A DNA stretch of 64,000 bases, taken from positions 1 to 64,000 of the forward strand of contig DAOUEE010000158.1 of assembly GCA_034430695.1 (NCBI GenBank), given 5' to 3'. Position 1 is the stretch's first letter. Every line of letters starts with the position of its first letter. The notes under the pieces are model-generated. The model was not told where the DNA came from. It saw nothing but the letters and a program-made list of their open reading frames with translations, and searched no databases. This document shows positions 1,404-60,447 of this stretch, piece after piece. Origin of the DNA: Anaerolineales bacterium (GTDB lineage Bacteria > Chloroflexota > Anaerolineae > Anaerolineales > E44-bin32). Both the position numbers and the translations under genes were made by a program.

Positions 1404-1440
1404 AAATTTTCATCCGTCACAGCAAAGGAGTTACCGTACG

Positions 1441-2178: not shown

Positions 2179-2222
2179 GGGAAAAAGTAAGGGGATGCAT
2201 TCTTGCATCCCTCTTGTGAGAG

Positions 2223-2304: not shown

Positions 2305-2458
2305 GTGATCGTAATTTTTTAATTCTGCGGTATTATAGCCCAGGCACGACGATTGTCAACATATGCGCAGGACACCATTATGAATTCCAGCGGTTGTAAT
2401 ATATGTCTGCGCTCATGGAACGATAGATGATTTATATATTGATTGGAGGGTATTCCCG

Positions 2459-8486: not shown

Positions 8487-8490
8487 GCGA

Positions 8491-9054
8491 TCATTCGTCC
8501 CCGCGTAGATAGAAAATCAAAAGTGTATTCCCGTACTTCCTTCGATCGAACTCCGCAAGATGCTGTAAATCAAGTGCTTCAGCTTCCTTCGGGTGCATTT
8601 GGGCGATCACCCAGGCATCCGGATTGAGTAAACTTGGGTTGGAGTCAATCGTTTTTACGGCCCGCAACCAGAGCCCTTTGTACTGCGGCGGCGCAACGTA
8701 CACGTAGTCGAACGGTTCTTCAACGTTACGAGAGAGAAGCGATAATGCGTCGGTGTGTAAAACCCGCGCTTTCGATTGAAATCCAGTCAGCTCTAGATTC
8801 TTTTCGACGGTTTCGATTGCGCGGCGGTTGTTATCCACGAATACGACTTGCCGTGCCCCCCGGCTGATCGCCTCGATGCCGACACTTCCCGTTCCCGCAA
8901 ACAGATCTAAAAATGTGCTTCCATCAATTTCAAGGCCGATAATGTTGAAAAGCGCTTCTTTTACTCGATCACCAATAGGACGCACCCCTCGATCCGGAAC
9001 GCGGAGTAATTTGCGCCCTTTTGCCTCCCCGGCAATCACACGGATTCCACTCAT
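8491..9054 (-). CDS. rsmD: 16S rRNA (guanine966-N2)-methyltransferase RsmD
   Basis: The 187-aa size, the start MSGIRVIAGEAKGRKL..., the SAM-binding motif FLDLFAGTGSVGIEA and the VAPPQY motif are typical of RsmD. Confidence 0.8.
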   Translation of the reverse strand: MSGIRVIAGEAKGRKLLRVPDRGVRPIGDRVKEALFNIIGLEIDGSTFLDLFAGTGSVGIEAISRGARQVVFVDNNRRAIETVEKNLELTGFQSKARVLHTDALSLLSRNVEEPFDYVYVAPPQYKGLWLRAVKTIDSNPSLLNPDAWVIAQMHPKEAEALDLQHLAEFDRRKYGNTLLIFYLRGDE

Positions 9055-9076
9055 CCTATATTATCTCGTATTATGG

Positions 9077-10057
9077 CTACACGCAATCTACTGCGTTGCG
9101 AACGGCTAAGATGTTTGCGTGCGGCGCGATGACGGGAACCACACAACCGGTCCCGAGAACCAGGCCGCGACCGTCCGTCGACGTAAATGCATCCCGCGCC
9201 TCCTCCGCTATCGCAGTCGCATCTTTATACACCATCGATGCCCGGCGCACGCCACCACACACTGCGCCTCGAACGTGGGATTTCCCCGTGCCTAGGTCCG
9301 GCCAGGTCTCTCGATCGTGCCAATTCACGACTTGAACCGGATATTCCTGCGCCAGGTCGAAAATGAGCGCCTCACCATGCAAATGAAGCACGTTGCACCA
9401 CCCACTCGCAGTTCGTTCCAAGATCCGTTGATCGTAAATCCTTCCAAAACGATCGTACGATTCCGAGTCAAAATAGCGATACGATGCGTGTTGAATCGCA
9501 TAGAAAATCCCATCGATGCCCATCTCGAAAACCGCATCAACGAAGGCGACCGTGCTCTCGGTAATGACCTCAAGCCCCGCTTCGACTTTCTTTGGGTCAC
9601 GATGAATATCGGCTAACAAAAGATCGATCCCGGCCAGATTCTTCGCTTGTGCCAGCGGGTTGAATATCGTTTGAATGACGGGAACATCTGCGTCTAGATT
9701 CGTTTTGAGGTGTTCCAGACAACGCAGCTGGTTGCCGAGGAAACCCTTTCGAGGATCGAGCTTTGGCAACTTCGGCCAGTCATCGGGGGATTGAATCACT
9801 CGCTGTGTGTAATCCCGCGTACCTTCCGTCGCGCCTCGCCACTCGTCATTCACCCCCCAATCCTTTAGACAATAAGAGGACGCCGGTGTGACCTTCACGA
9901 AATCAAAGTCGTACGTCTTCTGAAACAGCGCGGCCGCTTTGGCAAGTAGTTCAGGGTCCTGGTCATCAACCGGGAAATGACGCCATAAAGCGACCGGAGG
10001 CCGGTCTGCCACCTCCCCAGCGAATGCTGCTTCCAACCGCTCCCGTTTTGTTGTCAT
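9077..10057 (-). CDS. Uroporphyrinogen-decarboxylase (URO-D) family protein (MtaA/CmuA-like methyltransferase fold)
   Basis: 326 aa. The N-terminus 'RLEAAFAGEVADRPPVALWRHF' and overall composition resemble the URO-D/MtaA family. The assignment is by family only. Confidence 0.6.
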   Translation of the reverse strand: MTTKRERLEAAFAGEVADRPPVALWRHFPVDDQDPELLAKAAALFQKTYDFDFVKVTPASSYCLKDWGVNDEWRGATEGTRDYTQRVIQSPDDWPKLPKLDPRKGFLGNQLRCLEHLKTNLDADVPVIQTIFNPLAQAKNLAGIDLLLADIHRDPKKVEAGLEVITESTVAFVDAVFEMGIDGIFYAIQHASYRYFDSESYDRFGRIYDQRILERTASGWCNVLHLHGEALIFDLAQEYPVQVVNWHDRETWPDLGTGKSHVRGAVCGGVRRASMVYKDATAIAEEARDAFTSTDGRGLVLGTGCVVPVIAPHANILAVRNAVDCV

Positions 10058-10112
10058 TTAACTCCCTCGATCACCACACCTACAGTTCGTCGAAAATAGA
10101 ATATTGACCGGA

Positions 10113-10973
10113 TCACAACAAGGCCGGTATCGCTTCAGGTTGATCCGCTACAATCACCCCGGCGGATTCCAGTGCTTGAATTTTATCGACCGCCAACCCA
10201 GAACCACCCTCCACGATCGCTCCGGCATGCCCCATGCGCTTCCCGGGCGGCGCAGATTGTCCCGCGATGAAGGCTACCACGGGTTTCGTCATGTGATCGC
10301 TGATATATTCCGCGGCGAGTTCCTCATCCTTGCCGCCAATTTCTCCGATCATCACAACCTTATCGGTATGCGGATCGGCCTGGAACATGCCCAACACATC
10401 GATAAAGGACGTCCCGTTGATCGGATCTCCGCCAATTCCGACGCAAGTCGACGTGCCGATGCCTGCCAGCTTCAACGCATAAAGAACTTCGTAGGTTAAC
10501 GTTCCCGATCGAGAGACGAGACCCACCGAGCCAGGCTGTGTGATGTGACCGGGAATGATGCCGGCCTTGCACTCTCCCGGAGTGAGGATTCCCGGACAAT
10601 TCGGGCCAACCAAGCGTACACCCTTCTGGTCGATGTACTGCCGGACTCGCATCATGTCCTGAACTGGAATGCCTTCCGTAATGCAGATACACAACCCTAT
10701 TCCGGCGTCTGCTGCTTCGAGCATCGCGTCGACGGCAAACCTGGCCGGCACGAAAATCACGCTGGTGTCGGCGCCGGTCGTCTCCACCGCGCTTTTCACC
10801 GTGTCGAAAACCGGGATCTTCCCTTCGTAAACCCACTCTCCGCCCTTGCCGGGTGTGACACCCGCCACGATCTTCGATCCGTACTCGATCATCCGTACGG
10901 TATGGAAGAAACCTTCACGGCCCGTGATTCCCTGTACCAGAAGATTCGTGCTCGCATCAATGAGAACGCTCAT
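10113..10973 (-). CDS. sucD: Succinyl-CoA synthetase alpha subunit
   Basis: [45 protein letters not shown] plus the catalytic-His region 'GHAGAIV'. Confidence 0.95.
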
Positions 10974-12115
10974 ACTGACTTCCCCTCCGACGCTAACTGA
11001 ATGGCCTTTTGTGCGGCATCGCCAAGGGAAGTCGCCACAACCATATCCGCATTGCGCAGCAAGTGCCGTCCCTCTTCCTCGTTGGTTCCTACCAGCCGGA
11101 CGACCATGGGAAGATTTCCTTCGACTTCTTTCATCGCCGCGAGTATCCCGCGCGCCACTTCATCGCAGCGCGTGATGCCGCCAAAGATGTTGATCAATAC
11201 CGCATGCACGCTTTCATCCCTCAATATCAGGTTGAACGCCGCAGCGACTTTATCTGCGCCGGCGCCTCCACCGATGTCCAGAAAGTTTGCCGGCTCTCCA
11301 CCGTAAAGCTTGATCACGTCCATCGTCGCCATGGCCAATCCCGCGCCGTTGACCATGCAGCCAATGCTTCCGTCCAATTTCACGTAGGACAGGCTGAATC
11401 GCCGCGCTTCCCGTTCGGTCGGTTCCTCCTCATCCAGATCCCGCATCTCCGCCAATTCAGGGCGGCGAAACAACGCGTTGTCGTCGATGATCATCTTTCC
11501 ATCCAGGGCGAGCAAGCGGTCATCACCGGAGATTACCAGGGGGTTGATTTCTGCCAGGGTCGCGTCGGTGTTAACATACGTGTCGTACAGCCCGCAGACG
11601 ATGGTCCCGAACTGCTGCCAATATTCCCGAGACAATTCAATCGATGCCGCAAGTTGACGCGCCTGGTACTGGCGCATACCCAACAACGGATCGACGTGAA
11701 CCCGCACGATTTTCTCGGGCTTCGTTCGCGCCACTTCTTCGATGTCTACACCGCCTTCAGCAGAGGCGATGATCACCGGACAACGCCGGCCGCGATCGTT
11801 CGTGACGCTGAGATAAATTTCCGACTGAATGTCAGCTGCCTCGTCGACCAGGACTCGCCGTACGGGCAAGCCTTTCACGTGCATCCCCAGCACGTGCGTG
11901 GCGATCTCTTCCGCTTCCTCTGGCGAATCGACCAGGCGGATTCCTCCTGCTTTACCTCGTCCGCCAACCAGTACTTGCGCCTTGATCACCACACGGCTCC
12001 CCAATTCCTGCGCCACAACCTTCGCTTCCTGGGCCGTCATGGCAACCCGGCCACGCGGGATCGGGATGCCGTGTTGAGAAAATAACTGCTTGGATCGGTA
12101 CTCATGAAGCTTCAT
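10970..12115 (-). CDS. sucC: Succinyl-CoA synthetase beta subunit
   Basis: [22 protein letters not shown], an ATP-grasp domain, and overlap with the sucD start. Confidence 0.95.
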
Positions 12116-22067: not shown

Positions 22068-23942
22068 ATGCGGAAAAGTACGAAAGCGCTCGAGGGACAA
22101 ACCGAGCATCTTGAACGCATCCAGCCCGGTACGACTCTTCAAGATCGTTATTTGATTCTTGGATTGCTCGGCGCGGGCGGTATGAGCAATGTGTATAAAG
22201 GTCGAGATCTCCATTTTCCGAACGTCCAAAAGCTGGTGGCCATCAAAGAAATGACCAGCATGGTCTCGGACCAGACCATGCATGAAATGATCGTCACGAA
22301 CTTTGAACGAGAGGCAGATCTCCTGGCCACGCTCTCGCACCCCGCAATCCCTCGAATTTACGACTACTTCATCCATAACAACAGCCTATACCTGGTGATG
22401 GAGTTCATCGATGGCCTGGACCTAGAAGCCTTACTCGCCGAGAGTGAGGAATTTTTATCGGAACAACAAGTCGTCGAATGGGCCATCGAACTGTGTGATG
22501 TGCTGAGCTACCTGCACAACCATCAACCGGAACCCGTCGTCTTTCGCGACATGAAACCGTCCAACATCATGATCGACCAGCATGGTCACATTCGGCTGAT
22601 CGACTTCGGCATCGCCAGGGTGTTTCAACCCGGTCAGAAAGGAACCATGATCGGTACCGAAGGATATTCGCCACCCGAACAATATCGTGGTGAAGCTTCA
22701 CCGCCTGGCGACATCTACGCGCTGGGCGCTACACTCCATCATTTGTTGACCAGGCGTGATCCGCGCATCGAACCTCCCTTTTCGTTTGCAGAACGACCGA
22801 TTCGCGAGATCAATGCGGACGTGTCACCTGAGCTCGAAGCCGTGATCAGTGCCTCACTTGCCTACGATCCCAAAAACCGCTATCCAAGTGCGGAACAGAT
22901 GAAGCAGGCGCTGATGGGCGTCGTACAAGAAACCGGCATTCTGGTGAAACCCCGCACAGCAGCCATCGTCAGCACGGGAGATTCCGTCGAACCGGTCTGG
23001 ACCTTCGAATGCGAGGATGAAATCCGCGGCACGCCCCTCATCCATGACGGGACGGTGTACATCGGCTGTTATGACAACAATTTATATGCGCTGAACGCCG
23101 AAACCGGTGAATTCCTGTGGAAGTACGCTACCGAGGGAGGCATCACGGGAAAACCGGCCATTGAAGCCGATATGATCTTCATCGGTTCAGAAGACAATCG
23201 ACTGCATGCAATATCTGCGGACCACGGCAAACTCATTTGGATGTACTACGCCGAGGGACCCATCCGCTCATCCCCTGTCGTATCGGACGGACACGTTTTC
23301 TTCGGAGCAGATGACAGCCGCATACACGTGGTCAACATGATTACCGGGCGCAGAGCGTGGAGAGAGAATACAAGCGGACCCATTTGGTCCTCTCCCGCCG
23401 TACACGAAGAGCGCGTGTACTTTGGATGCGAAAGCGGCGATTTTTACTGCTACGATTTTCGCGGCGAGCAGAAATGGCGCAAAAAAATTAAGCGGGCAGT
23501 AACCTCCTCACCGGTGATCGCCAACGGAATGGTCTATTTCGGATCGAAAGACTGGACGCTCTACGCGCTCGAAATCGAAAACGGTTGGCAGGTATGGCGC
23601 TTCAGGATGGGCGGACCTACGATTTCGTCCCCCGCCTACGCGGACGGGAAAATTTTCATCGGCTGTGGCGATAACAACATCTACGCCATTCAGGCCAAAC
23701 ATGCCCGAGAGGCTTGGCGTTTTGCCACGGAGCATCAAGTAACGGGATCTCCTATTGCACATGAAGATTCGATCTATTGTGGCTCCGTAGATGGTTCACT
23801 TTACTGTTTGGAATTTCGCTCGGGACGTTTGCGCTGGCGTTTCGATACCGGCGGTGCGATAACGGGTACCCCAGCCATTTCGAACAACATGGTTTACATC
23901 GGATCGACCGACCATAAAATTTACTCGCTGTTGATTGTGTAA
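22068..23942 (+). CDS. Hanks-type Ser/Thr protein kinase with C-terminal PQQ-repeat beta-propeller
   Basis: Gly-loop LGAGGMSNVY, VAIK, catalytic loop HRDMKPSNIM, DFGIA, SPPE. The C-terminal 300 aa carry repeated 'G.VY.GS.D..LYAL....G...W' PQQ-type blades. No TM segment. Confidence 0.85.
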   Translation: MRKSTKALEGQTEHLERIQPGTTLQDRYLILGLLGAGGMSNVYKGRDLHFPNVQKLVAIKEMTSMVSDQTMHEMIVTNFEREADLLATLSHPAIPRIYDYFIHNNSLYLVMEFIDGLDLEALLAESEEFLSEQQVVEWAIELCDVLSYLHNHQPEPVVFRDMKPSNIMIDQHGHIRLIDFGIARVFQPGQKGTMIGTEGYSPPEQYRGEASPPGDIYALGATLHHLLTRRDPRIEPPFSFAERPIREINADVSPELEAVISASLAYDPKNRYPSAEQMKQALMGVVQETGILVKPRTAAIVSTGDSVEPVWTFECEDEIRGTPLIHDGTVYIGCYDNNLYALNAETGEFLWKYATEGGITGKPAIEADMIFIGSEDNRLHAISADHGKLIWMYYAEGPIRSSPVVSDGHVFFGADDSRIHVVNMITGRRAWRENTSGPIWSSPAVHEERVYFGCESGDFYCYDFRGEQKWRKKIKRAVTSSPVIANGMVYFGSKDWTLYALEIENGWQVWRFRMGGPTISSPAYADGKIFIGCGDNNIYAIQAKHAREAWRFATEHQVTGSPIAHEDSIYCGSVDGSLYCLEFRSGRLRWRFDTGGAITGTPAISNNMVYIGSTDHKIYSLLIV

Positions 23943-23974
23943 TACATTTTAGCTAGACAGGACAGAGATAGCGG

Positions 23975-24871
23975 ATGCAATTTCTAAAGAAGACATTCAA
24001 GGGGTTATTTGGAACTCTCGGGCGATCCGGCTCAACGAGATCTATGTCCGCTGCGCGACGCGGCTCGTCCACGTCTACTGCATGGTCATTGACCTGCGAG
24101 CAATCGATTCAAGTCGGTACGGGCCATTCCACCGGCATTGTCCGTTCACACAACGAGGATGCCCTCTTCGTCTTGACCGGGAATTCATTCGGCGACGATC
24201 CGCTAGATGGATTCGGCCTGTTTCTTGTCGCTGACGGCATGGGAGGCCATCGCGCAGGAGAAGTCGCCAGTGCCGTTTCCGTACGAACCGTCGCCAGAAG
24301 GTTGACGGAAGACACGATCATCGACCTGTTGGCACAAGAACCTCAAAACGACGCCGATTCCATCCAGGACATTCTGCGCCTTGCACTACAGGATGCAAAT
24401 CAAGCCGTGGTAAATAAAGTGCCCGGCGGCGGTACGACGCTGACGGCGGCGCTCGTTCTCGACGGCCAGGTGGTCATCGGTCACGTCGGTGACAGCCGGG
24501 CTTACGTCATTGAAAACGATTCGATGAAAGCGATCACGCGAGATCATTCGCTCGTGGAGCGTCTGCGGGAACTTGGACAACTCACGGAAGAGGAAGCGGC
24601 TGTACATCCACAACGCAACGTTCTCTACCGGGCGATCGGCCAGGGTGCAAATCTCGAGATCGACACGTTAACCCATCCCGTTCCGAAGGGCGGTTATCTA
24701 CTCCTCTGCTCGGATGGCCTGTGGGGAGAAGTCTCCGAAGATGTGATACATCGCATCATTTCCGGCTCCAACCATCCACAAGAGGCCTGTGAAGCCTTGG
24801 TCAGAGCCGCCAACGCTGCAGGCGGACCGGACAACATAACGGCGGTATTGGTGCAATTTCCGAAGGGGTAA
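23975..24871 (+). CDS. PP2C-family Ser/Thr phosphatase
   Basis: Metal-binding motifs 'FLVADGMGGHRAGEVAS' and 'LLCSDGLWG'. Ends ...GGPDNITAVLV. Confidence 0.85.
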   Translation: MQFLKKTFKGLFGTLGRSGSTRSMSAARRGSSTSTAWSLTCEQSIQVGTGHSTGIVRSHNEDALFVLTGNSFGDDPLDGFGLFLVADGMGGHRAGEVASAVSVRTVARRLTEDTIIDLLAQEPQNDADSIQDILRLALQDANQAVVNKVPGGGTTLTAALVLDGQVVIGHVGDSRAYVIENDSMKAITRDHSLVERLRELGQLTEEEAAVHPQRNVLYRAIGQGANLEIDTLTHPVPKGGYLLLCSDGLWGEVSEDVIHRIISGSNHPQEACEALVRAANAAGGPDNITAVLVQFPKG

Positions 24872-24882
24872 AAGGCGGACCA

Positions 24883-26364
24883 GTGTCTAGTGAGAGGGAT
24901 TATTACTCAATTCTCGGGGTACCGAGAAACGCGACGCTGACTCAAATCAAGCATGCGTATCGTCAAGCGGCGTCCCGTCTCCATCCAGACAAGAATGTCG
25001 CTCCGGGTGAAACGGAGCTATTCCTCGACGTCAGCCGCGCTTACGAAGTTCTAAGTGACCCGGATCAAAGAGCGGCGTACGATGAAGAACTGCAAAGCAT
25101 CGAAGAAAAACTAGCCGAGGAATCGGTTTTCCGCTGCAGCATAACCCACAGCCGCTCTCAGATCCTGCGCTTGGACGAACCCCAGGTACATTACGTTCTG
25201 ATGGACATAGAAGCCACCGCTGATCTGCCGGCCTCACGTCCGCCGGTCAACATGGCCATCGTCGTCGACCAATCCACATCGATGCGAGGGCAGCGTCTGG
25301 ATCGTGTTCGTGCAGCGACGCTTACCATCCTGGACGACATGCAACCTGAAGACGATGTTTCCGTCATTACGTTCAGCGATCGCGCTGAAGTCATCATATC
25401 CCCGGAACAAGCAAAGGATATCAAAACCGCGCGTGCCCGCCTCAGTCTCCTGCAGGCAGGAGGCGGTACGGAAATCGCGCAGGGTATGGAAGCGGGCCTG
25501 GCGGAAATCGAAAACAACCTGCGTAAAGAAGCCGTCAATCAGATGGTGCTGCTCACCGATGGCCGCACCTATGGCGACGAAGATCAATGTATCGCACTGG
25601 CAACAAAGGCGGCCGAGCAAGGGATTTCGATCAATTGCATTGGGATCGGATCTGACTGGAGCGACCGCCTGTTGGATGATTTGGCCACTCGCAGCGGAGG
25701 AAGCGTCGTATTCCTCAATTCCCCCAAGGCCGTTCAGGAACTGCTCGAAGAGATATTCACTTCCCTCGGCATGGTCGTTGCCAGTCGTATGCGTATCGAG
25801 GGCGCGATTGGACAACAGGTCGATCTGCGCTCAGCCTTTCGCATCCAACCTAACCCCATGCCGCTGGGTGACGTTCTGCCAATGTCCTTGGGACACCTCA
25901 TGCGGGACTCTCAAATTCGCGTGATCCTCGAGTTGGTTGTCCATCCGATCGGAGATATGCAGACGCTGCAGCTTACCCACACAAAAATCACCGGAGACAT
26001 TCTCTCCGGCGAATCGGAAACGACCTCCCTTCCCGTGAACCTGCAGATCCCCGTATCCCGGGATCCTGACCTGGAGCCCCCGCCCGATACAATCGTGGAT
26101 GCACTGAATTTGATCGCCTTGTATCGCATGCAGGAAATGGCACGGCACGAATCTGAATTGGGCCAATCGGTGCAAGCTGCGAAGCGATTGGAAAACCTGG
26201 CCACCCACCTGATCGCCTCGGGTGAGCGGGATCTCGCAAAAGCGGCTCTTAGTGAAGCCGTGCGACTTTCTCGTACCGAGCGATTATCCAGCGAGGGTGA
26301 GAAAATCCTGAAATACGGCACCCGTGCCCTGCTTTTACCGCCCTCCGAGAAGATGAGGCAATGA
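24883..26364 (+). CDS. J-domain (DnaJ-like) + von Willebrand factor A domain protein
   Basis: J-domain 'DYYSILGVPRNATLTQIKHAYRQAASRLHPDKN' with HPD. The vWA domain has MIDAS DQSTSM...T...D (res ~118-290). Confidence 0.75.
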   Translation: MSSERDYYSILGVPRNATLTQIKHAYRQAASRLHPDKNVAPGETELFLDVSRAYEVLSDPDQRAAYDEELQSIEEKLAEESVFRCSITHSRSQILRLDEPQVHYVLMDIEATADLPASRPPVNMAIVVDQSTSMRGQRLDRVRAATLTILDDMQPEDDVSVITFSDRAEVIISPEQAKDIKTARARLSLLQAGGGTEIAQGMEAGLAEIENNLRKEAVNQMVLLTDGRTYGDEDQCIALATKAAEQGISINCIGIGSDWSDRLLDDLATRSGGSVVFLNSPKAVQELLEEIFTSLGMVVASRMRIEGAIGQQVDLRSAFRIQPNPMPLGDVLPMSLGHLMRDSQIRVILELVVHPIGDMQTLQLTHTKITGDILSGESETTSLPVNLQIPVSRDPDLEPPPDTIVDALNLIALYRMQEMARHESELGQSVQAAKRLENLATHLIASGERDLAKAALSEAVRLSRTERLSSEGEKILKYGTRALLLPPSEKMRQ

Positions 26365-51702: not shown

Positions 51703-52086
51703 GGCAACACCTCCTCCATCGAATTCTGTATCTCACGAAAGACAGTGAAACATACTGCCTGTTTAATCTACACCACAATGGAAGAACAGTAAATTCCACG
51801 GGCTCAAATTAGATCGGATCCAAACGGTCTAGCCAGGAATGGTCCAGACCATTTTACACAAATCGCGAAGCAGAATATAATGGTGGTTCACTTGCGTCGC
51901 ATTAGAAACCATTGGAATGTGAAGTCGAGCACGTTTCCCGAAATGCCGTCAGGTGTTTTTTCATACCAGGACAGATGTTGAGGTGACTTTGCAAGCCAAA
52001 TGAAAGGTCTACTTTCTCACTTATGATGTACCCTTAGCTTAGATTCAGCGGTAATTCAGGAAGGCAAACGCTTTGGGAGAATCGAC

Positions 52087-53052
52087 TTGACGAATCAAGG
52101 TGCAGATACCAGGCATTTGCTCATCGTTGACGATGAGCATGAAATCTTGAAGGCCCTGACCAATTACCTGAGTAAACTATACGATGCGTATACGGTCGAT
52201 ACGGCAAATAGCGGCGCGGCTGCCCTTGAAAAGATCAAAAAAGGTTCATACGAGCTGATCATAACCGATTACATGATGCCGACCATGAACGGCCTGGAAT
52301 TGGCCAAGGCTGCTCGTGAAATCTCTCCGGATACGAAGGTAGTCCTTATTACAGCATACGGAAATAAGGAGTTGCGTTCGTCCGTCGAAGATTTGAATCT
52401 CGAGGGCTTCATCGATAAACCCTTCAGCATGGCACAGATTCGGGAGATCGTGGAAAAAGCAATTGGCTCGATGAACGGCGACGACCAACCCAACATGCAA
52501 GGTCTTAGCGAACCACTGCGGGACAAATTGAATAAATTGCAGGCCGATTCCGGAGCTTCATGCGTTTTACTGCTGAGCGCAAACGGCTACACGGTCGAAA
52601 CCGCAGGTGTTACGAGCGGTATGGACACTTCAAACATCAGTGCACTCGTGGCAGCGAATTTCGCAGCTTCGTCCGAATTGGCCAGAATCCTGAAGAGTAA
52701 TTCCGTTTTCAAATCCAGTTTCCATGAAGGGCCAGAATACAACATTTACGCTCACGATGTGGATGGCGACTTCCTCCTGGCGGTAATTTTCGGTTCGGAA
52801 ACCAAACCTGGTGCGGTATGGCACTACACCAAACAAACGGCCGTCGAATTGGCGCCATTGATCGCCGATCAGAAGGAAGCGGAAATCGATTCCGACAACC
52901 TGGCGGAAGCGATGAATGCCGAACTCGACAATTTGTTGGATGATGAGATCCTGGTGGACATCGGTACAGGAGAATTAATCACGTTCGAAGACGCCATGAA
53001 TGCCGGACTCGTTCCATCCGAGTTGAAAGAATCAAAGAAGGGCAAAATGTGA
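52087..53052 (+). CDS. Response-regulator receiver fused to Roadblock/LC7 (MglB-like) domain
   Basis: TTG start with GGGAGA RBS. REC 'LLIVDDEHEIL...LIITDYMMPTMNG...VVLITAYG'. The C-terminal 'CVLLLSANGYTVETAGV...FLLAVIFGSE' has a Roadblock pattern. Confidence 0.75.
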   Translation: MTNQGADTRHLLIVDDEHEILKALTNYLSKLYDAYTVDTANSGAAALEKIKKGSYELIITDYMMPTMNGLELAKAAREISPDTKVVLITAYGNKELRSSVEDLNLEGFIDKPFSMAQIREIVEKAIGSMNGDDQPNMQGLSEPLRDKLNKLQADSGASCVLLLSANGYTVETAGVTSGMDTSNISALVAANFAASSELARILKSNSVFKSSFHEGPEYNIYAHDVDGDFLLAVIFGSETKPGAVWHYTKQTAVELAPLIADQKEAEIDSDNLAEAMNAELDNLLDDEILVDIGTGELITFEDAMNAGLVPSELKESKKGKM

Positions 53053-53140
53053 CGTTTTCAAGGGATGAGGTTTGTGTGTAGCGTTTGAAGTGTTGGTGAG
53101 TTGACGTTATATTTCGGCTTATGATGGAGGAACTACCAAG

Positions 53141-53713
53141 ATGTATATTAACCAAAAGCTGGGCGAGTTGCACATCAAAATTGTATACTACGGCCCTGCT
53201 CGCAGTGGAAAAACGACAAACCTGCAATTCATCCACGGACACATCAACCCAAAAGCGCGTGGTGAATTGGTTTCTTTGAAAACGCGCGAAGATCGAACGA
53301 TTTTCTTTGATTTCATGCAATTAGAACTCGGGAAAATCAACGGCCTAAAACCTAAATTCAGCCTGTATACGGTGCCTGGGCAGGTGTATTACGAAGCAAG
53401 CCGAAAACTTGTCCTTCAGGGTTCCGATGGAGTCGTGTTCGTTGCCGACTCGCAGCGCGATCGTTTATCTGATAACATCAGCGATCTCAAGGCGCTGGAA
53501 CAGTACTTGATACAGCTGGGGACGCCGATGGATTCATTCCCGTGCGTCATTCAATTCAACAAGCAGGATCTACCCGACGTGATCGAGCCCGATGATCTAA
53601 AGACGCAGATGAATATCAACGGTGTTCCTTGTATGGGCTCGTCCGCGATCAAGGGCCATGGCGTATTCGATACTTTGAAAACCATCATAAATCTTGTGGT
53701 TAAACAACTATAA
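53141..53713 (+). CDS. mglA: MglA-like Ras-superfamily small GTPase
   Basis: P-loop GPARSGKTT, intrinsic Arg finger 'EDRTIFFDF', switch-II 'TVPGQVYY', G4 'NKQD'. It is collinear with M. xanthus MglA over its full length (190 aa). Confidence 0.85.
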   Translation: MYINQKLGELHIKIVYYGPARSGKTTNLQFIHGHINPKARGELVSLKTREDRTIFFDFMQLELGKINGLKPKFSLYTVPGQVYYEASRKLVLQGSDGVVFVADSQRDRLSDNISDLKALEQYLIQLGTPMDSFPCVIQFNKQDLPDVIEPDDLKTQMNINGVPCMGSSAIKGHGVFDTLKTIINLVVKQL

Positions 53714-53739
53714 ATCTTAGGAAACAAAGGCATTAACCT

Positions 53740-54450
53740 ATGGCAGTTCAGGGGAATCTTATTGACATCAGTCTATCCAGTCTGATTAGCATTAATTGCA
53801 ACGAGATGAATCAAGCACGCCTGCTTGTGAAACATCGGGATCAAGAAGGAACCTTGTTTTTCGATGAAGGGGACATCGTCCATATGACCCTGGGTTCACA
53901 AGAAGGAGAAGACGTGATCTTCGAACTTCTTACCTGGGAAGACGGAACGTTCGAATTAACGAGGGACATACGCGCACCAAAACGCAGCGTCGAGACCAAC
54001 TGGTCCCATTTGCTGTTGGAGGGACTGCGGCGCATCGACGAGCAAACCCTCATGAAAAGCGGTGACGATGACGATGCCAATCGCGAAAAACAGAAATCGG
54101 AACATGAAGCTGCCGAACGCATGGCCAAAGATTTCACGCGGATCAATGGCATCGAAGGTGCACTTGTTACTTCGAAATATGGTGATGTACTAGGTTTCGA
54201 GGCAATGAAAAATCCCAAAGCGACGGCGGCTCTCGCAGCTTTCGCAGGACGACGGGCAGAAGAATTGGGCATCCTGTTGAACGCCGGGGCGCTTCAGCAA
54301 ATCACCATGTCTGGCGATGGCTGGAGAATGATCGTCTTTCCGTCTGAAAAACACTTGACGGCATTATCCATGGATCCCAAAATTTCAGTGAGTGCTACAG
54401 CCAATGCATTACAAGCCACGAAGAGAAGGCATCGAAAGGAAAAAGTTTGA
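53740..54450 (+). CDS. DUF4388 + Roadblock/LC7 two-domain protein
   Basis: The N-terminal 'GNLIDISLSSLISI...GTLFFDEGDIVHMTLG...LTWEDGTFEL' is DUF4388-like. The C-terminal 'INGIEGALVTSKYGDVLGF...WRMIVFPSEKHLTALSMD' is Roadblock. Confidence 0.7.
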   Translation: MAVQGNLIDISLSSLISINCNEMNQARLLVKHRDQEGTLFFDEGDIVHMTLGSQEGEDVIFELLTWEDGTFELTRDIRAPKRSVETNWSHLLLEGLRRIDEQTLMKSGDDDDANREKQKSEHEAAERMAKDFTRINGIEGALVTSKYGDVLGFEAMKNPKATAALAAFAGRRAEELGILLNAGALQQITMSGDGWRMIVFPSEKHLTALSMDPKISVSATANALQATKRRHRKEKV

Positions 54451-54542
54451 TGCATTGAGGACAGACCCGGAAATTTCTATTCGAGCGATCGTCGAAAACG
54501 GAATGCGTTTCGACAAAGATTGGCTCTCATAGGAGAATTGAG

Positions 54543-55553
54543 ATGTTATTACCAAAGGGAAAACCGATCTACGAAAATCTGAACACATCATTTACGAGTT
54601 TCGGCAAGTTGCTGCTGGATCTCAAGTCCAATGGCTTCACCGGATACGTCTACATCAGTTTCTGGGACTACGAAGCCGCTTTGTTCATGGACAACGGCAA
54701 CATCATCAACGCCATCGAAGAAACCGGCGGAAACAGGAAAACCAGCCACGATGCCGTCGGTAGCATCACTGCAAAAGTCAATCAGAAGGATGGTTCCATC
54801 AGCGTGTACAGCCTCTCACCAAAGAAGGTAACCATGCTCGCCAGTACAGTGAGAAGCGAAGTGCGCTACAAGGACCTCAACACTGATTTCACCAGCCTCG
54901 AAAAACTTATTGCAAAACTGAAGAGCGAGGGGCACACCGGTTACATCGAGGTCAGGATGACGGGTGGTGATGGTATAGCCATTGTCTTCCTCGAGAACGG
55001 TGAAGTCGTCGAGAGCATCCTCTCGATGCAGGATGAGGCGATATCCGGTGATGCGATCTTGCCTCACATTATCGAAAACGCTTCGACATTGGGCGCAGAT
55101 TTCAACGTGTACAACGCCGCCATTGAAGCCTCATTCGCCGAAAGTGAGGAAATCGAAGCCGGCTTCGACCTGCCGCGATTGCTGGCCGTGTGGGGCGAAA
55201 CGATAGGTGCGATCGAAAGAATGGCGGACAGCACAATCGGTAGAGGACAATTCCTCGAAGCCTTCAAATATGTCATGATCGAGAAGGCCAATGAATACCC
55301 GTTTCTGGATCCTTTTGCCGGCTTGTTTCAATACAAGGACGGCAGAATCCAATACAGCGGAGATGCGAAGAACCTGAGCAAAGGTCTCAGTGATTGTCTG
55401 AGTACGACAATCGAGCAGCTGGCCTCCCAACCGGCAGCCGCCGATCTGGAACACAGAATCCAGACCGAAATGAAGGCGGTCAAGGACAAATACGACGACA
55501 CGATCAAGCGCTTGGGCTTGGGGCCATTCATCCTTGGTTTCACGGCCGATTAA
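54543..55553 (+). CDS. Protein with two tandem DUF4388-like repeats and helical C-terminal region
   Basis: Internal repeat 'LNTSFTSFGKLLLDLKSNGFTGYVYISF...NGNIINAIE' versus 'LNTDFTSLEKLIAKLKSEGHTGYIEVRM...NGEVVESIL'. Confidence 0.55.
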   Translation: MLLPKGKPIYENLNTSFTSFGKLLLDLKSNGFTGYVYISFWDYEAALFMDNGNIINAIEETGGNRKTSHDAVGSITAKVNQKDGSISVYSLSPKKVTMLASTVRSEVRYKDLNTDFTSLEKLIAKLKSEGHTGYIEVRMTGGDGIAIVFLENGEVVESILSMQDEAISGDAILPHIIENASTLGADFNVYNAAIEASFAESEEIEAGFDLPRLLAVWGETIGAIERMADSTIGRGQFLEAFKYVMIEKANEYPFLDPFAGLFQYKDGRIQYSGDAKNLSKGLSDCLSTTIEQLASQPAAADLEHRIQTEMKAVKDKYDDTIKRLGLGPFILGFTAD

Positions 55554-55562
55554 GAGCAAATC

Positions 55563-56000
55563 ATGGACCAAGTACTCGCAGAAATCAACGCGTTGGACGG
55601 TGTACTCGGATCGTTCATCTGCGATAATCGCGGCAACGTGATCGTGAATGCTGTTCCCGCAAATCTGAACATCGCTGTGCTGCGGGGAATCAGCCGTCAA
55701 GTGACGCAAGCAATCGCTGCCAGGATACAAAACGGCATCCAAGAAATTGACCTAACCTATGAAGGAATCCGGGTGCTGATTCGCGCCCTCAACCAGGCCG
55801 CACTCGTGGTAATCTGCGAATCGAATGTGGACATCGCCCTTCTTCGACTGACATTGAATGTCAGCTTATCCAAGCCGGAATTCGGATCACAGCTTACCAA
55901 CATAGCACCCAAGGAACAGGTTATCCGGATCGTGCAGGAAGTCGATGTCGATGAAATATCCTGGCGCCTATATCGATCCATTAATGAGGGAGTCATGTGA
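55563..56000 (+). CDS. Roadblock/LC7 (MglB-like) domain protein
   Basis: 'INALDGVLGSFICDNRGNVIV...ALVVICESNVDIALLRL' is the classic Roadblock pattern. 145 aa. Confidence 0.7.
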   Translation: MDQVLAEINALDGVLGSFICDNRGNVIVNAVPANLNIAVLRGISRQVTQAIAARIQNGIQEIDLTYEGIRVLIRALNQAALVVICESNVDIALLRLTLNVSLSKPEFGSQLTNIAPKEQVIRIVQEVDVDEISWRLYRSINEGVM

Positions 56001-56788
56001 TGGCAGAAGCTTTACGGGGTGATCTACACCAATTATCACTCCCGAACATTATTCAGTTGTTAAAATCGGGGGGCCAGACGGGAAAAATTGATTTGACGGA
56101 CGGAAACAACACCGGCGAGATTTTCCTCGAGAACGGCAACATCGTCCACGCGATTGCCGGCGTTCTAATTGGGGAAGAAGCCTTCTATTCCCTTTTATCA
56201 TGGTTGCACGGAGATTTCAATTTCGTCAGTGGTATTGAAGCCCCAGAGGAAACGATTTCAACCTCCACAGAGCTGCTCCTCGCCGAGGGAGAAAAACGCA
56301 TCCAGGGATGGTCAGAAATCAAAAACGTAATACCTTCGATGCAGGCGATTTTCAATCTTGCCGAAGGAACAACGGGAGCGATCAACCTCGATCCGAACGA
56401 ATGGAAAGTCCTTGCGCAGGTAAATGGCGTTCGCACGATCAACGATATCGCCGCATCTCTCGGATGGGATGAATTCGAAGCCGCAAGCGTCCTGGCCGCT
56501 CTCGTAAAGACGGGGCTGCTTGAAATAGTTGAAGAATCCAAGTCACCTCCCGTCACGGCCATCGACAACGAGTTTTTCGATCGGCTCAATGATGAATTTA
56601 TTGAGGTAATCGGTCCTGTTGGGCCGGTGATCATCGACGAAAAGATCGCTTCGTTGAATGAAACCAGAGAGTCTTTCCCGCGCAACAAAGTCGCTGACCT
56701 GGTGGAACAAGTAAGTACGGAAATTGAAGACACGGATCAACGCATGCATTTCCAACAGATCATGTTGGATCTGTTGCGAGGAATCTAG
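55997..56788 (+). CDS. DUF4388 domain protein
   Basis: 'LRGDLHQLSLPNIIQLLKSGGQTGKIDLTDGNNTGEIFLENGNIVHAIAG...EEAFYSLLSWLHGDFNF' is a near-consensus DUF4388. ATGTGATG overlap with the upstream gene. Confidence 0.75.
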   Translation: MMAEALRGDLHQLSLPNIIQLLKSGGQTGKIDLTDGNNTGEIFLENGNIVHAIAGVLIGEEAFYSLLSWLHGDFNFVSGIEAPEETISTSTELLLAEGEKRIQGWSEIKNVIPSMQAIFNLAEGTTGAINLDPNEWKVLAQVNGVRTINDIAASLGWDEFEAASVLAALVKTGLLEIVEESKSPPVTAIDNEFFDRLNDEFIEVIGPVGPVIIDEKIASLNETRESFPRNKVADLVEQVSTEIEDTDQRMHFQQIMLDLLRGI

Positions 56789-56872
56789 CCCGGCGATGAA
56801 GGAGTACTTACCACTGTAGCCATCTGCGGTTTGCCGGATTTTGCGATGACGAGTAAGGAGATCTAAACAAAG

Positions 56873-57655
56873 ATGAGATTGACCATCGGTAGAAAATTAG
56901 GACTTGGCTTCGGAATTCCATTGGTCCTGTTGGCTTTGATCGGGATTGCTGTTTTCATCGGATTCAACACGCTTACCAACGCAGCGCGAGATTCAATCGC
57001 AGCTCAGCAAACGATTGAATTCATGGAAAGAGGCATGAAGCTCCTGCTGACGGAACGTATCTTGTTGAGCCATCAATTCGCAACCGGTGAGGAAACAACG
57101 GCGGCTGAATCTCGAAACGACTACATGCAGGAATGGGCGCTCGTCGTAGAAAATACAAGCACTCGATATTCGGATCTAGTGATGGAAATCCAACGAGCGG
57201 TCACGATATATCACCAATATCTAGATAGGGCACAATCAACCTACGAGACCAATCCAAATGACGCCCCCGACGCGTTACGCGAACTGGATGAAGCCGATAT
57301 ATTCTTCATTCAAATTGTACGACCTACCATGGACGATTTACTTTCCACTGCCGTTACAGAAAAATCACAACTCGTCGATGTCCTTGAAAATCAAATTATC
57401 GGCATTACGAGAATCGCGCTCCTCGTCGTCGTCATTGGAATCATTATTTCTGTATTCAGCGCGCTCACAATCCGGCGTGGCCTTACGAACGCGGCCTTGT
57501 ATCTGAGCTCTGCAGCCGAGAGCATCAGCCGCGGCGATTTGGACACTCCCATTATCGCTGAGACTGGTGACGAGATGGAAGATCTTGCCCGCTCGATTGA
57601 GCGCATGAGGGTCAGTCTGAAAGCTGCGATCGAACGATTGCGGAGAAGAACATAA
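56873..57655 (+). CDS. Membrane sensor: TM - four-helix-bundle extracytoplasmic domain - TM - HAMP, no output domain
   Basis: TM1 'LGFGIPLVLLALIGIAVFIGF', TM2 'ITRIALLVVVIGIIISVFSALTI'. The HAMP-like 'RRGLTNAALYLSSAAESISRGDLDTPIIAETGDEMEDLARSIERMRVSL' is followed by the stop. Confidence 0.65.
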   Translation: MRLTIGRKLGLGFGIPLVLLALIGIAVFIGFNTLTNAARDSIAAQQTIEFMERGMKLLLTERILLSHQFATGEETTAAESRNDYMQEWALVVENTSTRYSDLVMEIQRAVTIYHQYLDRAQSTYETNPNDAPDALRELDEADIFFIQIVRPTMDDLLSTAVTEKSQLVDVLENQIIGITRIALLVVVIGIIISVFSALTIRRGLTNAALYLSSAAESISRGDLDTPIIAETGDEMEDLARSIERMRVSLKAAIERLRRRT

Positions 57656-57835
57656 CCATGTGTTACAAGCAAGTTTGTCGGGAAATCAACACCACCCTTC
57701 ACATACCTGACGATGGGACGAGCTTTGAACTCACCCAAAATCCGTCGTTCCAGCGTAAATTCGGCGGGACTTCCAACAACGTCTGCATGATTTCGGACTT
57801 GAAAGTCAACGCCAACCAATTTCGGGAGGTACCCA

Positions 57836-58327
57836 ATGCCAGATAAAGTGGTAATACCCCCAGCTCTGATGACGAAGATCATCAAGATCATGTCGCAATT
57901 GCTGGAGAAAACTCAAGCATGCTGTGTCTTGCTTGCGGACATCAGCGGTCAGCTGATCTGCCAACAAGGGTTTACCAAGACCTTTGATCCGGTCATCTTG
58001 TCTGCTTTAACCGCCAGCAACATGGCTGCAACGGCGGAGATCGCCCGCCAGATCGGTGAGGAAAATCCATTCAAACTCATGTTCCACGAAGGGGACGATC
58101 AGAATATCTACCTTTCGAACGTTGCCGGCAGTTTCCTGCTCGTTGTCCTGTTCAGCACGAAAGTCCAGATCGGTCTTGTACGCCTATTCACCGGGCAGGC
58201 CGTGAAGAACCTCATTCCACTTGCCGCGGAGTTCGAACGCGTACAAAAGGAACAGGGACGCATTGTCGATGATGAATTTGGTCAAGCATTGACCACAGAG
58301 ATTGAGAGTCTGTTTGGCGATAATTAA
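57836..58327 (+). CDS. Roadblock/LC7 domain protein
   Basis: 'ACCVLLADISGQLICQQG...FLLVVLFSTKVQIGLV' has a Roadblock pattern. Confidence 0.65.
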   Translation: MPDKVVIPPALMTKIIKIMSQLLEKTQACCVLLADISGQLICQQGFTKTFDPVILSALTASNMAATAEIARQIGEENPFKLMFHEGDDQNIYLSNVAGSFLLVVLFSTKVQIGLVRLFTGQAVKNLIPLAAEFERVQKEQGRIVDDEFGQALTTEIESLFGDN

Positions 58328-58360
58328 CATTCGATACTTTGTGGCTGAAGGAAGGTTACG

Positions 58361-58753
58361 ATGAATTATCAACAAGTTGATTTGGCCACGTACCAACCGG
58401 TAACACTCGATGAACTTCTGCTCACCTTGCACGAGCAAGGTCAATTCGAGACTGCCGTCCTCGCGAGCGGTGAGGGATTGCCTATCGCGACCGTACCTGC
58501 GAACTTCGATACGGATAAAGCGGCAGCCATGATTGCGATGCTTAAAAGAGTGAGCAAGGAGGCACGTGATCAGTTTCCACTTGCAGAAATTGATGAATTT
58601 TCCATTCTTGATTCCAATCGGATGCGTTTGGTTTGCCGATATTTGAAAGCCGGCGGCGAGGAAATGATTCTTGCGGTCATTGCGCCGCCAGACCACAGCT
58701 ACCGCCGTATGACGAACCAGGCCATTAAACAAATCGTTGAATTCCTTTCTTGA
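58361..58753 (+). CDS. Roadblock/LC7 domain protein
   Basis: 'TAVLASGEGLPIATVPAN...MILAVIAPPD' has a Roadblock pattern. 130 aa. Confidence 0.65.
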   Translation: MNYQQVDLATYQPVTLDELLLTLHEQGQFETAVLASGEGLPIATVPANFDTDKAAAMIAMLKRVSKEARDQFPLAEIDEFSILDSNRMRLVCRYLKAGGEEMILAVIAPPDHSYRRMTNQAIKQIVEFLS

Positions 58754-58780: not shown

Positions 58781-60010
58781 GTGAAATGTATTCAGGTGAT
58801 GAACGGAACAGGCGGAAGTATCTCAGAAGTTGGTATCAAATCTCTCTCGACGATCGACCGATCGTGTGAAAGGAAAGAGTTCGAAGAATTCTTCCATGGT
58901 CAATTCGATCAATATTTCGCGCGTAGCGAGACGCGACAACAAGCCCTGCATTACGTCCAATCACTGCTCTTAGATTCAGATCCCAAATCCAACGGTAAGA
59001 AACCCCCTGCCTATAGGAAATTCTCGAAGTCCGCCCAGAGGTTGTTTTTCGGCGCGCAATGGGACGACGAAGCCGTACACCACCGTCTCCAGGATTTCAT
59101 CGTTGCAGAATTGGGCCATGAAAAAGGCGTATGCCTCATTGGTGTGACGTATTTCTCTAAAAAGGGAGAAAAAACGGTCGGAGTACAGTCGCAATTCAAT
59201 CGCAAACTCAAGAAGGACCAGAATTGTCAGGTTTGCCTGTTCCTGGGGTATGCCTCCCCGAAGGGTTGTACATTTCTCGACCGTCGTCTCTACCTTCCCG
59301 TGCAATGGACGGAAGACCAAAAGCGCAGAGCCGAAGCGAAAATCCCCGAGGACATCGAATATCGAAGCAAGTCCGATCTTGCCTTGGACATGCTTCAATC
59401 GGTCCATGCCATCGGAGCACCCATTCATTGGGTGGTTGGCGGCGAACCATTCTGCAGCGATACGAATTTACGCAACGTCATACAAGCGGCTGGCATGAAT
59501 TACATTCTCTCCGGCCGGGATACGGATTCGAGTTTCCGAAACTTGAATCACAAGCAAACAACGTCTGATCCGAACAACCAGGAAGATGAAGCCTGTGATT
59601 CTTCTATCTTCAAGATCGTAACCAATTGGAACGAGAAGAAATGGAAGCGCGTAATCGATCGTTCGAACGGAGATGAAATCTGTGTCTTCGATTGGGCTTC
59701 GGAGCGTGTTCTCGAGTTCCAGAACGAAACCGATTCCCAGGAAGTCTGGCTGTTGGCTCGCCGGCCGGTGAGTCAGCGATGCGAAACCGCGTATTTCATC
59801 TCCAACGCTTCACAGGACGCAACTCTTTCCAACCTCGCCGAGAAAATCAGCGGCTTGGGGATACTCGATCAGATGGTATCAGAAGCATGCACGAATTTTA
59901 TGATGGACGTGTACGGAGTGCGCCACTGGAACAGCTGGCATCGTCATATCACTCTATCGATGATCGCCCATGCCTGGTGGGTATACAAAGGGAAAAGGAC
60001 GTTACGATGA
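58781..60010 (+). mobile_element. IS701-family DDE transposase homolog with apparently substituted catalytic residues (possible domesticated/decayed transposase)
   Basis: Family blocks recalled from memory: 'F..F...F.R.E.R..A..Y..SLL', 'KKGEKTVGVQSQF...NCQVCLFLGYAS', 'LDRRLYLPVQWTED', 'WVVGGEPF', 'VRHWNSWHRHITLSMIAHA'. At the positions expected for D-D the sequence reads IGVTYF (not DETGF) and GGE (not GDE). It lies 27 nt after the upstream gene and has an ATGA overlap with the downstream gene. Confidence 0.65.
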
Positions 60011-60447
60011 ACCATCCTCCATTTTCGATAGAAGGATGTGATCAGACGCTGCAGGAAGAGCAGACCAATACGTGCGGACAAGGGAAAACCATCCTGTTTG
60101 TAGAAGACAATGACTTGATGCGAGAAATCGGCGCGCAGATATTGGAGGATTTGGGGTATCGAGTCATCTGCGCCGCGAACGGTCAAGAAGCGTTTGACAT
60201 CTTCAATGAGACAGAGCATATCGATTTGATATTCACCGACGTAGTGATGCCTGAGATCAGCGGTGCAGCTTTGCTCCAGAAAATTCGGGCAGCCGGTTCG
60301 CTCGTTAAAGCCGTTGCCGTGACGGGCCACGTCCTGGCGGAGGACCTGGATCGATTACGGGAAGTGGGTGTCACATCGATTATTCGAAAACCCTACGACG
60401 TCGACATCCTGGCTGATGCAGTCCGTGAAGCGTTGGAAAATGGGTAA
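60007..60447 (+). CDS. Stand-alone CheY-like response-regulator receiver
   Basis: 'TILFVEDNDLMREIG...DLIFTDVVMPEISG...AVAVTGHV' with Asp and Lys at the expected receiver positions. Confidence 0.8.
   Translation: MNHPPFSIEGCDQTLQEEQTNTCGQGKTILFVEDNDLMREIGAQILEDLGYRVICAANGQEAFDIFNETEHIDLIFTDVVMPEISGAALLQKIRAAGSLVKAVAVTGHVLAEDLDRLREVGVTSIIRKPYDVDILADAVREALENG

Follow-up and report, generated by a model that had tools for sequence, protein, structure and literature searches.

The stretch of DNA analysed here (the window) comprises 64,000 nucleotides from an Anaerolineales bacterium (contig DAOUEE010000158.1, positions 1 to 64,000, forward strand). Towards its end, at 56873–57655, lies a gene for a membrane receptor whose only cytoplasmic part is a HAMP domain. 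The gene directly upstream encodes a protein with an N-terminal PATAN (DUF4388) domain and a C-terminal DUF8082 domain, hereafter the partner; both genes belong to a cluster (52087–58753; Table 1) which also encodes an MglA-type small GTPase and several Roadblock proteins. The analysis concerns the architecture of this receptor, its pairing with DUF8082 across bacteria, and the relation of the pair to the Af1503/Af1502 proteins of Archaeoglobus fulgidus and to STAC domains.

Hydropathy analysis of the receptor located two hydrophobic segments, the predicted transmembrane helices TM1 and TM2, together with clusters of lysine and arginine at the N-terminus and immediately past TM2; the placement of these basic residues before TM1 and after TM2 leads to a predicted N-in, loop-out, C-in topology. 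The HAMP domain (PF00672) was recognised by Pfam at residues 210–250 (37.4 bits against a cut-off of 25, E 3.2e-9), and TarH gave a weak, sub-threshold match to the sensor region, which in homologues bears PF12729/PF02203. Neither Pfam nor NCBIfam gave a match to MCPsignal (PF00015), HisKA, HATPase or GGDEF in the receptor, and the NCBIfam matches were limited to the TM2–HAMP portions of assorted kinases and chemoreceptors. The HAMP sequence carries a strongly conserved signature, SxSRGDLD...DE..LA.S.ERMR.SLKAA.ERLRR, followed by a basic tail.

An AlphaFold2 (AF2) model of the receptor, made from 31 family members, is all helical with a mean predicted local distance difference test (pLDDT) score of 88, and has helices at residues 5–71, 77–94, 97–126, 131–219 and 234–259. 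TM1 and a four-helix bundle are followed by a 14-residue connector and a last helix; the long helix 131–219 runs from the sensor through TM2 into the first amphipathic helix of the HAMP domain (AS1), and the last helix is the second (AS2), with the stop one residue beyond it. Two amphipathic helices and a connector, the layout of a HAMP domain, are therefore placed immediately after the last transmembrane helix. The top structural matches found with Foldseek were sensor–TM–HAMP fragments of NarQ (5jgp, E 6e-5), with the ligand-binding domains of Tsr, Tar and PcaY next. This architecture is far beyond chance; it is not that of a methyl-accepting chemotaxis protein (MCP), as the PF00015 signalling domain is missing and the chain ends at residue 260. 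A preliminary description, made from the DNA letters alone, had proposed two transmembrane helices around an extracytoplasmic helical domain of about 140 residues, then a HAMP module and a stop, with no MCP signalling domain, kinase or GGDEF; hydropathy, the Pfam and NCBIfam searches and the AF2 model agree with it on each of these points.

The same description had allowed that a frameshift might conceal a fused output domain downstream. The next gene, mglB-like, begins at 57836, 180 nt past the receptor stop, so no such hidden domain is possible, and the stop position is identical in four related species. Comparison of these species identified, as the sole notable conserved feature of the spacer, a GGGAGG resembling a ribosome-binding site ahead of the next start codon; an Rfam scan of the spacer region for an RNA element gave no match. 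In a search of 5.8 billion proteins at least 205 relatives of the receptor were found, nearly all of 258–273 residues and with a HAMP domain, often plus 4HB_MCP/TarH. Truncation or frameshift was rejected on the combined grounds of the short spacer, the conserved stop and this family-wide conserved length.

To obtain loci, one genome per prokaryotic species was scanned with two HAMP motifs, giving 180 relatives, 80 of which were kept and joined with ten loci fetched earlier; open reading frames were called in all 90. The HAMP match ends 0–10 residues before the stop in 89 of these loci, in proteins of 246–621 residues whose sensors differ (four-helix-bundle (4HB), sCache_3, Cache_3-Cache_2 and unrecognised types). 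As the loci had been selected by motif, a filter-free phmmer search was added, with the last 64 residues of the receptor as query against 1.84 billion cluster representatives (E ≤ 1e-3). It returned 515 clusters at 50% identity; among the best 150, 140 have the HAMP domain at the C-terminus, five are giant poly-HAMP proteins and five are of other kinds. The HAMP subtype of this receptor is thus characteristically terminal.

The one locus with a non-terminal HAMP domain, L037, has a 734-residue open reading frame (L037:9488-11692) which continues past the HAMP domain with a signal-peptide-like hydrophobic segment, a periplasmic NMT1/THI5-like solute-binding domain and a LysM domain, and is probably a read-through or a fusion with the next gene rather than a receptor with an output domain. 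Many family members (P0002, P0004, P0016, P0031 and others) carry the automatic label 'methyl-accepting chemotaxis protein' or 'histidine kinase' with no such domains, and these labels are mis-annotations. Several such labels, assigned by JGI, could be taken to mean that the receptor is the decayed or truncated remnant of a chemoreceptor or kinase gene. Against this, hundreds of homologues from different phyla have kept both the length and the place of the stop, MCPsignal, HisKA and HATPase are lacking, only 180 nt lie downstream, and the C-terminus is the most conserved part of the protein; a pseudogene is, in our judgement, next to impossible.

The most constant companion of the terminal HAMP domain is DUF8082, a domain of roughly 75 residues. 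Homologues of the partner bear PF14332 and PF26309 (DUF8082), and in the loci fetched first, with receptors of 25–71% identity, the directly upstream gene always encodes PatA_N plus DUF8082 or, in one case, DUF8082 alone. With a hidden Markov model built from the C-terminal ~85 residues of the partner, DUF8082 was found in 79 of the 90 loci; in 71 of them, spanning at least eight phyla, its gene immediately precedes the receptor gene and shares its strand. The two genes are separated by −46 to +141 nt, with frequent stop/start overlaps. DUF8082 is always C-terminal in its protein and is the sole constant part of the partner; its consensus motif is MGPxA, of which the window copy, IGPVG, is a variant. 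No fusion of DUF8082 to a HAMP receptor occurs among the 90 loci. The association also held in reverse, as in a Syntrophaceae genome the gene after that of a PATAN–DUF8082 homologue encodes a 280-residue Tll0287-like plus HAMP protein. Word-indexed searches returned two proteins with the DUF8082 profile and 15 with the full-length partner.

Adjacency has been lost in one Anaerolineales subgroup (L019, L020, L023 and L024), where the receptor gene stands at the cluster end, past mglB, mglA and the Roadblock genes and 1.7–2.0 kb from the DUF8082 gene, with operon membership kept. In the Syntrophaceae locus (L091, GCA_013388635.1) the pair has TRAP transporter operons (DctP/Q/M) on both sides, at 625–3703 and 8215–11233, which echo the published transporter-rich neighbourhoods of Af1503-like receptors.

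The N-terminal part of the partner varies. It is mostly PATAN, but is Roadblock-like in L009 and L057 and an AAA_22 ATPase of the ExeA/GspA type in five loci. The two Roadblock–DUF8082 fusions (L009:3572-4207 and L057:1984-2613; 209–211 residues) adjoin the receptor gene, and their Roadblock-like part resembles the protein encoded at 55563–56000 in the window. The AAA_22–DUF8082 proteins (L037:8250-9518, L040:7500-9524, L045:1245-3077, L061:5127-6467 and L068:8157-9392, from Binatia and 'Deltaproteobacteria' metagenome-assembled genomes) have an ExeA/GspA-like N-terminus and a long low-complexity linker, and are encoded directly upstream of genes for terminal-HAMP receptors of about 250 residues. 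PATAN binds PilB and PilC; together with the AAA_22 fusions, this may point to a connection with the machinery of type II secretion or of type IV pili. The preliminary description had named the DUF4388 and Roadblock proteins as the likely partners of the receptor. The neighbouring DUF4388 gene is indeed the one most tightly linked to it, but the element retained across phyla is DUF8082 and not PATAN or Roadblock.

Both members of the pair resemble a known archaeal pair, Af1503 and Af1502 of A. fulgidus, reportedly the subject of studies by Hulko (2006) and Korycinski (2015). When the receptor HAMP domain was compared with the PDB, the HAMP domain of Af1503 (4gn0, 2l7h) was the second-best match (E 8e-5 to 7e-4); a rhodopsin-transducer chimera scored slightly better (E 4e-5), and the motif is thus not exclusive to the Af1503-like family. 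The stretch SIER(L/M)R.SLK.A.E is common to AS2 of the receptor and Af1503, and in engineered full-length Af1503 the HAMP domain is likewise C-terminal. For DUF8082 the best PDB match was Af1502, with E 0.014 over 30 residues only. A structure model of DUF8082, made from a shallow alignment, fits the STAC layout: two α-hairpins, a loop of about nine residues in the middle, and a GPxA-type motif that separates the first two helices (h1 and h2). Each single similarity score for DUF8082 is modest; nonetheless, three methods agree, and adjacent proteins of the window independently match adjacent proteins of Archaeoglobus, for which reasons we regard the homology of the DUF8082 module to Af1502/STAC as well supported when these results are taken together.

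The Lupas group has described Af1503-like receptors as 'C-terminally shortened', with the HAMP domain as sole cytosolic part, and as often coupled to Af1502-like proteins of 60–90 residues with an LGPx(x)A motif; the Af1502 gene is translationally coupled to that of Af1503 (PMC4834066). In the Af1502-like fold, which is related to the STAC domain of CbrA, nine residues connect two hairpins to give a four-helix bundle (PMC4834066; PMC5715377). The window pair shares with Af1503/Af1502 the two transmembrane helices around an extracellular sensor, a related HAMP domain which is the sole cytosolic part and lacks an effector, and the adjacent, often translationally coupled gene for a four-helix domain with a GPxA-type motif and nine-residue central loop. 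It differs in being bacterial, whereas the family has been described as archaeal; in gene order, the STAC-like gene coming first; and in the context of the STAC-like domain, which ends a PATAN protein (elsewhere a Roadblock-like protein or an ExeA-like ATPase) instead of standing alone at 60–90 residues. The neighbourhood differs as well, since the window pair lies among MglA, MglB, Roadblock and PATAN genes and not in a transporter-rich region; transporters flank only some other loci, such as L091.

STAC domains are also known from the SLC5-type histidine kinases CbrA and CrbS. In the CbrA structure determined by cryo-electron microscopy the STAC domain docks beneath the membrane domain on its cytoplasmic face and was proposed to be a coupling element (PMC13022988). 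DUF8082 shares with it the two α-hairpins, the nine-residue loop and the GPxA-type motif, and would share the character of a cytoplasmic module that docks on a membrane protein. In CbrA and CrbS, however, STAC is an internal linker that joins a 13-TM transporter to kinase domains within a single polypeptide, whereas DUF8082 ends a soluble protein, with a separate gene for the membrane protein; by Pfam the partner has no SLC5 or kinase domain, its N-terminal domain being PATAN. A scan of the DUF8082 segments with the Pfam version used here gave no match, and any relation to the STAC domains of CbrA and CrbS is therefore remote.

Conservation and charge suggest where the two proteins might meet. 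Within the family the mean pairwise identity is 0.76 for AS2, compared with 0.24 for the sensor, and the conserved AS2 positions include ones that would be solvent exposed (S241, E243, R244, R246, S248, K250 and R255); part of this conservation is due to the way the sequences were collected, although Af1503, which was not so collected, shares most of the positions. The last 22 residues of the receptor are basic in all 84 distinct sequences (median net charge +4; +6 in the window), and DUF8082 is acidic in 95% of cases (median −5; −10 in the window).

On these grounds we consider that the receptor is probably a bacterial split receptor of the Af1503 type, whose terminal HAMP domain docks the STAC-like DUF8082 domain encoded upstream. 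Ligand binding to the periplasmic four-helix bundle would cause a conformational change that passes via TM2 into the dimeric HAMP domain. This domain would itself be the output, its conserved surface with the basic distal end docking the acidic DUF8082, and its signalling state would alter the binding or the orientation of the PATAN–DUF8082 partner. Acting with the Roadblock proteins, the attached PATAN domain might then modulate MglA and MglB, making the receptor a phosphorylation-independent transmembrane input to a small-GTPase switch. Relay by protein–protein contact, as the preliminary description had it, agrees best with the lack of an output domain and the conserved gene pairing, with the contact itself inferred from these features.

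Several observations weigh against this proposal. DUF8082 was not detected in 11 of the 90 loci, three of which are cut at contig edges; among loci of an Aquificota type, three have Roadblock and MglA genes adjoining the receptor gene and no detected DUF8082. The collection of loci by HAMP motif patterns inflates the apparent invariance of the motif. The text of the Lupas group reports no binding between Af1502 and Af1503 and proposes a role in solute transport (PMC4834066), and in the only solved STAC complex, that of CbrA, the contact is with the transporter domain and not with a HAMP domain (PMC13022988). MglA and MglB genes are, in addition, missing from the sequenced flanks of most loci outside the Chloroflexota.

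The gene pairing and the conserved HAMP surface are equally compatible with constitutive binding, in which case the HAMP tail would be a passive membrane anchor that recruits the PATAN–STAC protein and the Roadblock/MglA module with no ligand signal involved; PATAN domains in Synechocystis do reach the membrane via unidentified partners (bioRxiv 10.1101/2021.06.11.447907). Yet the receptors retain full-size ligand-sensor types (4HB_MCP, sCache_3 and Cache_3-Cache_2), which have been swapped between lineages and evolve fast, as sensors do, and a HAMP domain, being a conformational relay, would be superfluous in a simple anchor. We consider such a role unlikely.

In principle a HAMP relay can work in either direction, and inside-out receptors of the LapD type are said to exist (a 2014 eLife study). 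The state of the GTPase, PATAN or receiver domain could by analogy be passed through STAC and HAMP to a periplasmic domain acting on an extracytoplasmic target. The periplasmic domains, however, belong to ligand-sensor families and vary freely, whereas conservation would be expected of an effector surface, and no conserved gene for a periplasmic partner was seen in the 90 loci; signalling in this direction appears very improbable.

The context of the docking proposal in the window is an operon-like cluster, in which the partner gene occurs with those of MglA, MglB, four further Roadblock domains, two more PATAN-like proteins and a receiver domain (Table 1). All genes of the cluster are on the forward strand with short or overlapping gaps, and no convincing terminator was seen between them on that strand. 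The flanking DUF4388 and Roadblock genes of the preliminary description were recovered, the former upstream and the latter downstream of the receptor gene, together with the MglA-type GTPase. The GTPase has threonine in place of the G3 aspartate (YTVPGQ), as in MglA, and the MglB-type protein has the Roadblock fold, although the NCBIfam MglB model scores 59 bits on it, below its cut-off. The 145-residue protein encoded before the partner gene has no Pfam or NCBIfam match. Translation of the partner gene probably starts with the ATG at 56000; this codon and the stop of the gene before it overlap (ATGTGATG), which suggests translational coupling of the two genes.

Table 1. Coordinates of the receptor gene, the partner gene and the other features of the cluster in the window
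Feature	Position	Strand	Description
Best promoter-like site, TTTACA-17-TATAAT	51853–51881	+	Upstream of cluster; consensus scan, 11/12 matches, weak evidence
Response-regulator receiver–Roadblock fusion	52087–53052	+	First cluster gene; Pfam Response_reg 92 bits, Robl_LC7 30 bits
MglA-type small GTPase	53141–53713	+	E 4e-56, full length, to M. xanthus MglA structures; MglA-specific YTVPGQ motif
PATAN/DUF4388 + Roadblock-like protein	53740–54450	+	Pfam DUF4388 71 bits; weak Robl_LC7
336-residue protein, DUF2226-like and DUF4388/PATAN-like halves	54543–55553	+	Weak Pfam matches; syntenic in 39 loci
Roadblock/LC7-like protein, 145 residues	55563–56000	+	Profile of 14 homologues against structures: many Roadblock/LC7, best E 0.003
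Partner gene: PATAN/DUF4388, middle region, DUF8082; 263 residues	55997–56788	+	Pfam DUF4388 77 bits, residues 7–105
STAC/Af1502-like four-helix domain, DUF8082	56567–56785	+	Residues ~191–263; h1, IGPVG, h2, 9-residue loop, h3, h4; net charge −10
Output-less receptor gene	56873–57655	+	ATG start, 260 residues; TM1, four-helix-bundle sensor, TM2, HAMP, stop
TM1	56897–56965	+	Residues ~9–31; Kyte-Doolittle 19-residue windows up to 2.7; three lysine/arginine residues ahead
Periplasmic all-helical sensor	56966–57394	+	Residues ~32–174 (~143 residues), 4HB_MCP/TarH-like, fast-evolving
TM2	57395–57472	+	Residues ~175–200; hydropathy up to 2.86; runs continuously into AS1 of HAMP
C-terminal HAMP	57473–57652	+	AS1 ~201–219, connector 220–233, AS2 234–259
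MglB-type Roadblock protein, candidate GTPase-activating protein	57836–58327	+	Directly downstream of receptor; E 1e-18 to M. xanthus MglB; Pfam Robl_LC7
Second downstream Roadblock protein, 130 residues	58361–58753	+	Pfam Robl_LC7 29.5 bits

Chloroflexota homologues with identities as low as about 30% keep the gene order of the cluster. Most Chloroflexota loci, and those of Nitrospirota and Aquificota, have MglA and MglB, but GTPase-module genes are found in none of 36 loci from other lineages (0 of 13 'delta', 0 of 18 Binatia and 0 of 5 Deinococcota, in the sequenced flanks), where DUF8082 nevertheless remains adjacent to the receptor gene. The evolutionary unit is therefore the DUF8082 protein together with the terminal-HAMP receptor, and the GTPase cluster is one of several contexts of this pair. 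Given how few loci outside the Chloroflexota have these genes in their flanks, coupling to the GTPase does not extend to the pair at large. The non-canonical input to a small-GTPase module suggested in the preliminary description retains the support of the Chloroflexota, Nitrospirota and Aquificota loci, and becomes a lineage-specific one.

This distribution also bears on where the HAMP domain signals. Its target could be MglB or another Roadblock dimer, or a HAMP-containing kinase or chemoreceptor, with DUF8082 co-occurring for a different reason such as transporter regulation. In the window and in most Chloroflexota loci mglB directly follows the receptor gene, and the Aquificota-type loci have the order Roadblock–receptor–MglA; the STAC literature, for its part, favours a transporter link (PMC4834066; PMC13022988), and TRAP transporters flank the L091 pair. 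It is DUF8082, however, that stays adjacent when the GTPase module is absent, and translational coupling of DUF8082 and receptor genes is frequent. Because MglB and Roadblock genes are absent from most loci, direct signalling to them, conceivable in the lineage of the window, is not the general mechanism, and we think a target other than DUF8082 rather improbable.

Other systems combine some of the same elements. A direct precedent is the Cache_heme–HAMP (CHH) receptor of Pseudomonas azotoformans, which binds an operon-encoded Ser/Thr kinase via small helical modules that contact the HAMP domain (bioRxiv 10.64898/2026.05.25.727664). It too has a terminal HAMP domain uncoupled from any output, which is supplied in trans by the operon partner; it differs in its sensor (Cache_heme in place of the four-helix bundle), in its partner (a kinase with two helical repeat modules in place of STAC–PATAN) and in its readout, which is phosphorylation of the HAMP domain. 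In the conservons (CvnA-D) and in the Frz–MglA/MglB system a Roadblock protein and an MglA-family GTPase are encoded alongside, or receive input from, a HAMP membrane sensor, as would be the case here. However, CvnA of the actinobacterial conservons has a histidine-kinase-like ATPase module and CvnC (DUF742) is present, whereas none of the ten cluster proteins of the window has a Pfam match to HATPase or DUF742; Myxococcus Frz is a full chemosensory phosphorelay, whereas the window receptor has no enzymatic or MCP signalling domain. In PatA-type regulators (PixE, PixG and PatA) PATAN is likewise a membrane-localised protein-interaction output, and PATAN genes neighbour mglA and mglB homologues; their input comes from a fused receiver domain, in place of which the window partner has the STAC-like domain.

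Published work already covers this type of receptor and the way it is coupled to Af1502-like proteins (PMC4834066), as well as a general neighbourhood link between PATAN and MglA/MglB. In the searchable literature, a survey outside which the primary STAC paper lay, we found nothing on the breadth of the pair in bacteria, nothing equating Pfam DUF8082 with an Af1502/STAC-like partner, nothing on fusions of DUF8082 to PATAN, Roadblock-like or ExeA-like ATPase domains, and nothing on the pair being embedded in MglA/MglB operons; a pairing of PATAN with HAMP was not described there either. The receptor–STAC pair is common in bacteria; there the STAC-like module is joined to output domains that can be recognised and, in several phyla, lies within operons of the MglA/MglB polarity GTPase. 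For a whole class of receptors this supplies a concrete partner that can be tested, down to particular domains and residues, along with a plausible output in the cell, and the findings suggest that a signal may pass from the cell surface to a small GTPase with no phosphorylation involved.

More tentatively, DUF8082 might be a general docking adaptor for terminal HAMP domains in a widespread split-receptor system, one that would extend over at least eight bacterial phyla and Af1503/Af1502 and include direct wiring to MglA/MglB; this broader generalisation is possible, though we would not presume it. Were it correct, interchangeable sensors and outputs (PATAN, Roadblock, ExeA-like ATPase) would be joined non-covalently, and in Chloroflexota, Nitrospirota and Aquificota an extracellular signal would reach the Ras-like MglA/MglB switch with no phosphorelay. 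Prokaryotes would then have an equivalent of signalling from a receptor to a small GTPase, and the target of Af1503 would be identified.

An IS701-family transposase gene (NCBIfam 246 bits, above the cut-off) lies at 58781–60010 on the forward strand, immediately past the Roadblock genes. It occupies the same position in four related species with 70–83% identity, a divergence like that of its neighbours, which suggests that the copy has long been resident or is domesticated, rather than newly inserted. Its end is overlapped by a CheY-like receiver gene (~59998–60447, forward strand). At the orthologous locus L002 the receiver gene is followed by a gene for a 1421-residue hybrid kinase with periplasmic-binding, PAS and GAF domains, and a window counterpart would extend beyond the window end. 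On scanning, no type IV pilus or motility genes were found in the rest of the window, which consists of housekeeping genes except for a separate signalling cluster at 22068–26364 (forward strand), unrelated to the receptor, with genes for a fusion of a Ser/Thr kinase to a PQQ-type β-propeller, a PP2C phosphatase and a DnaJ–VWA protein in a row.

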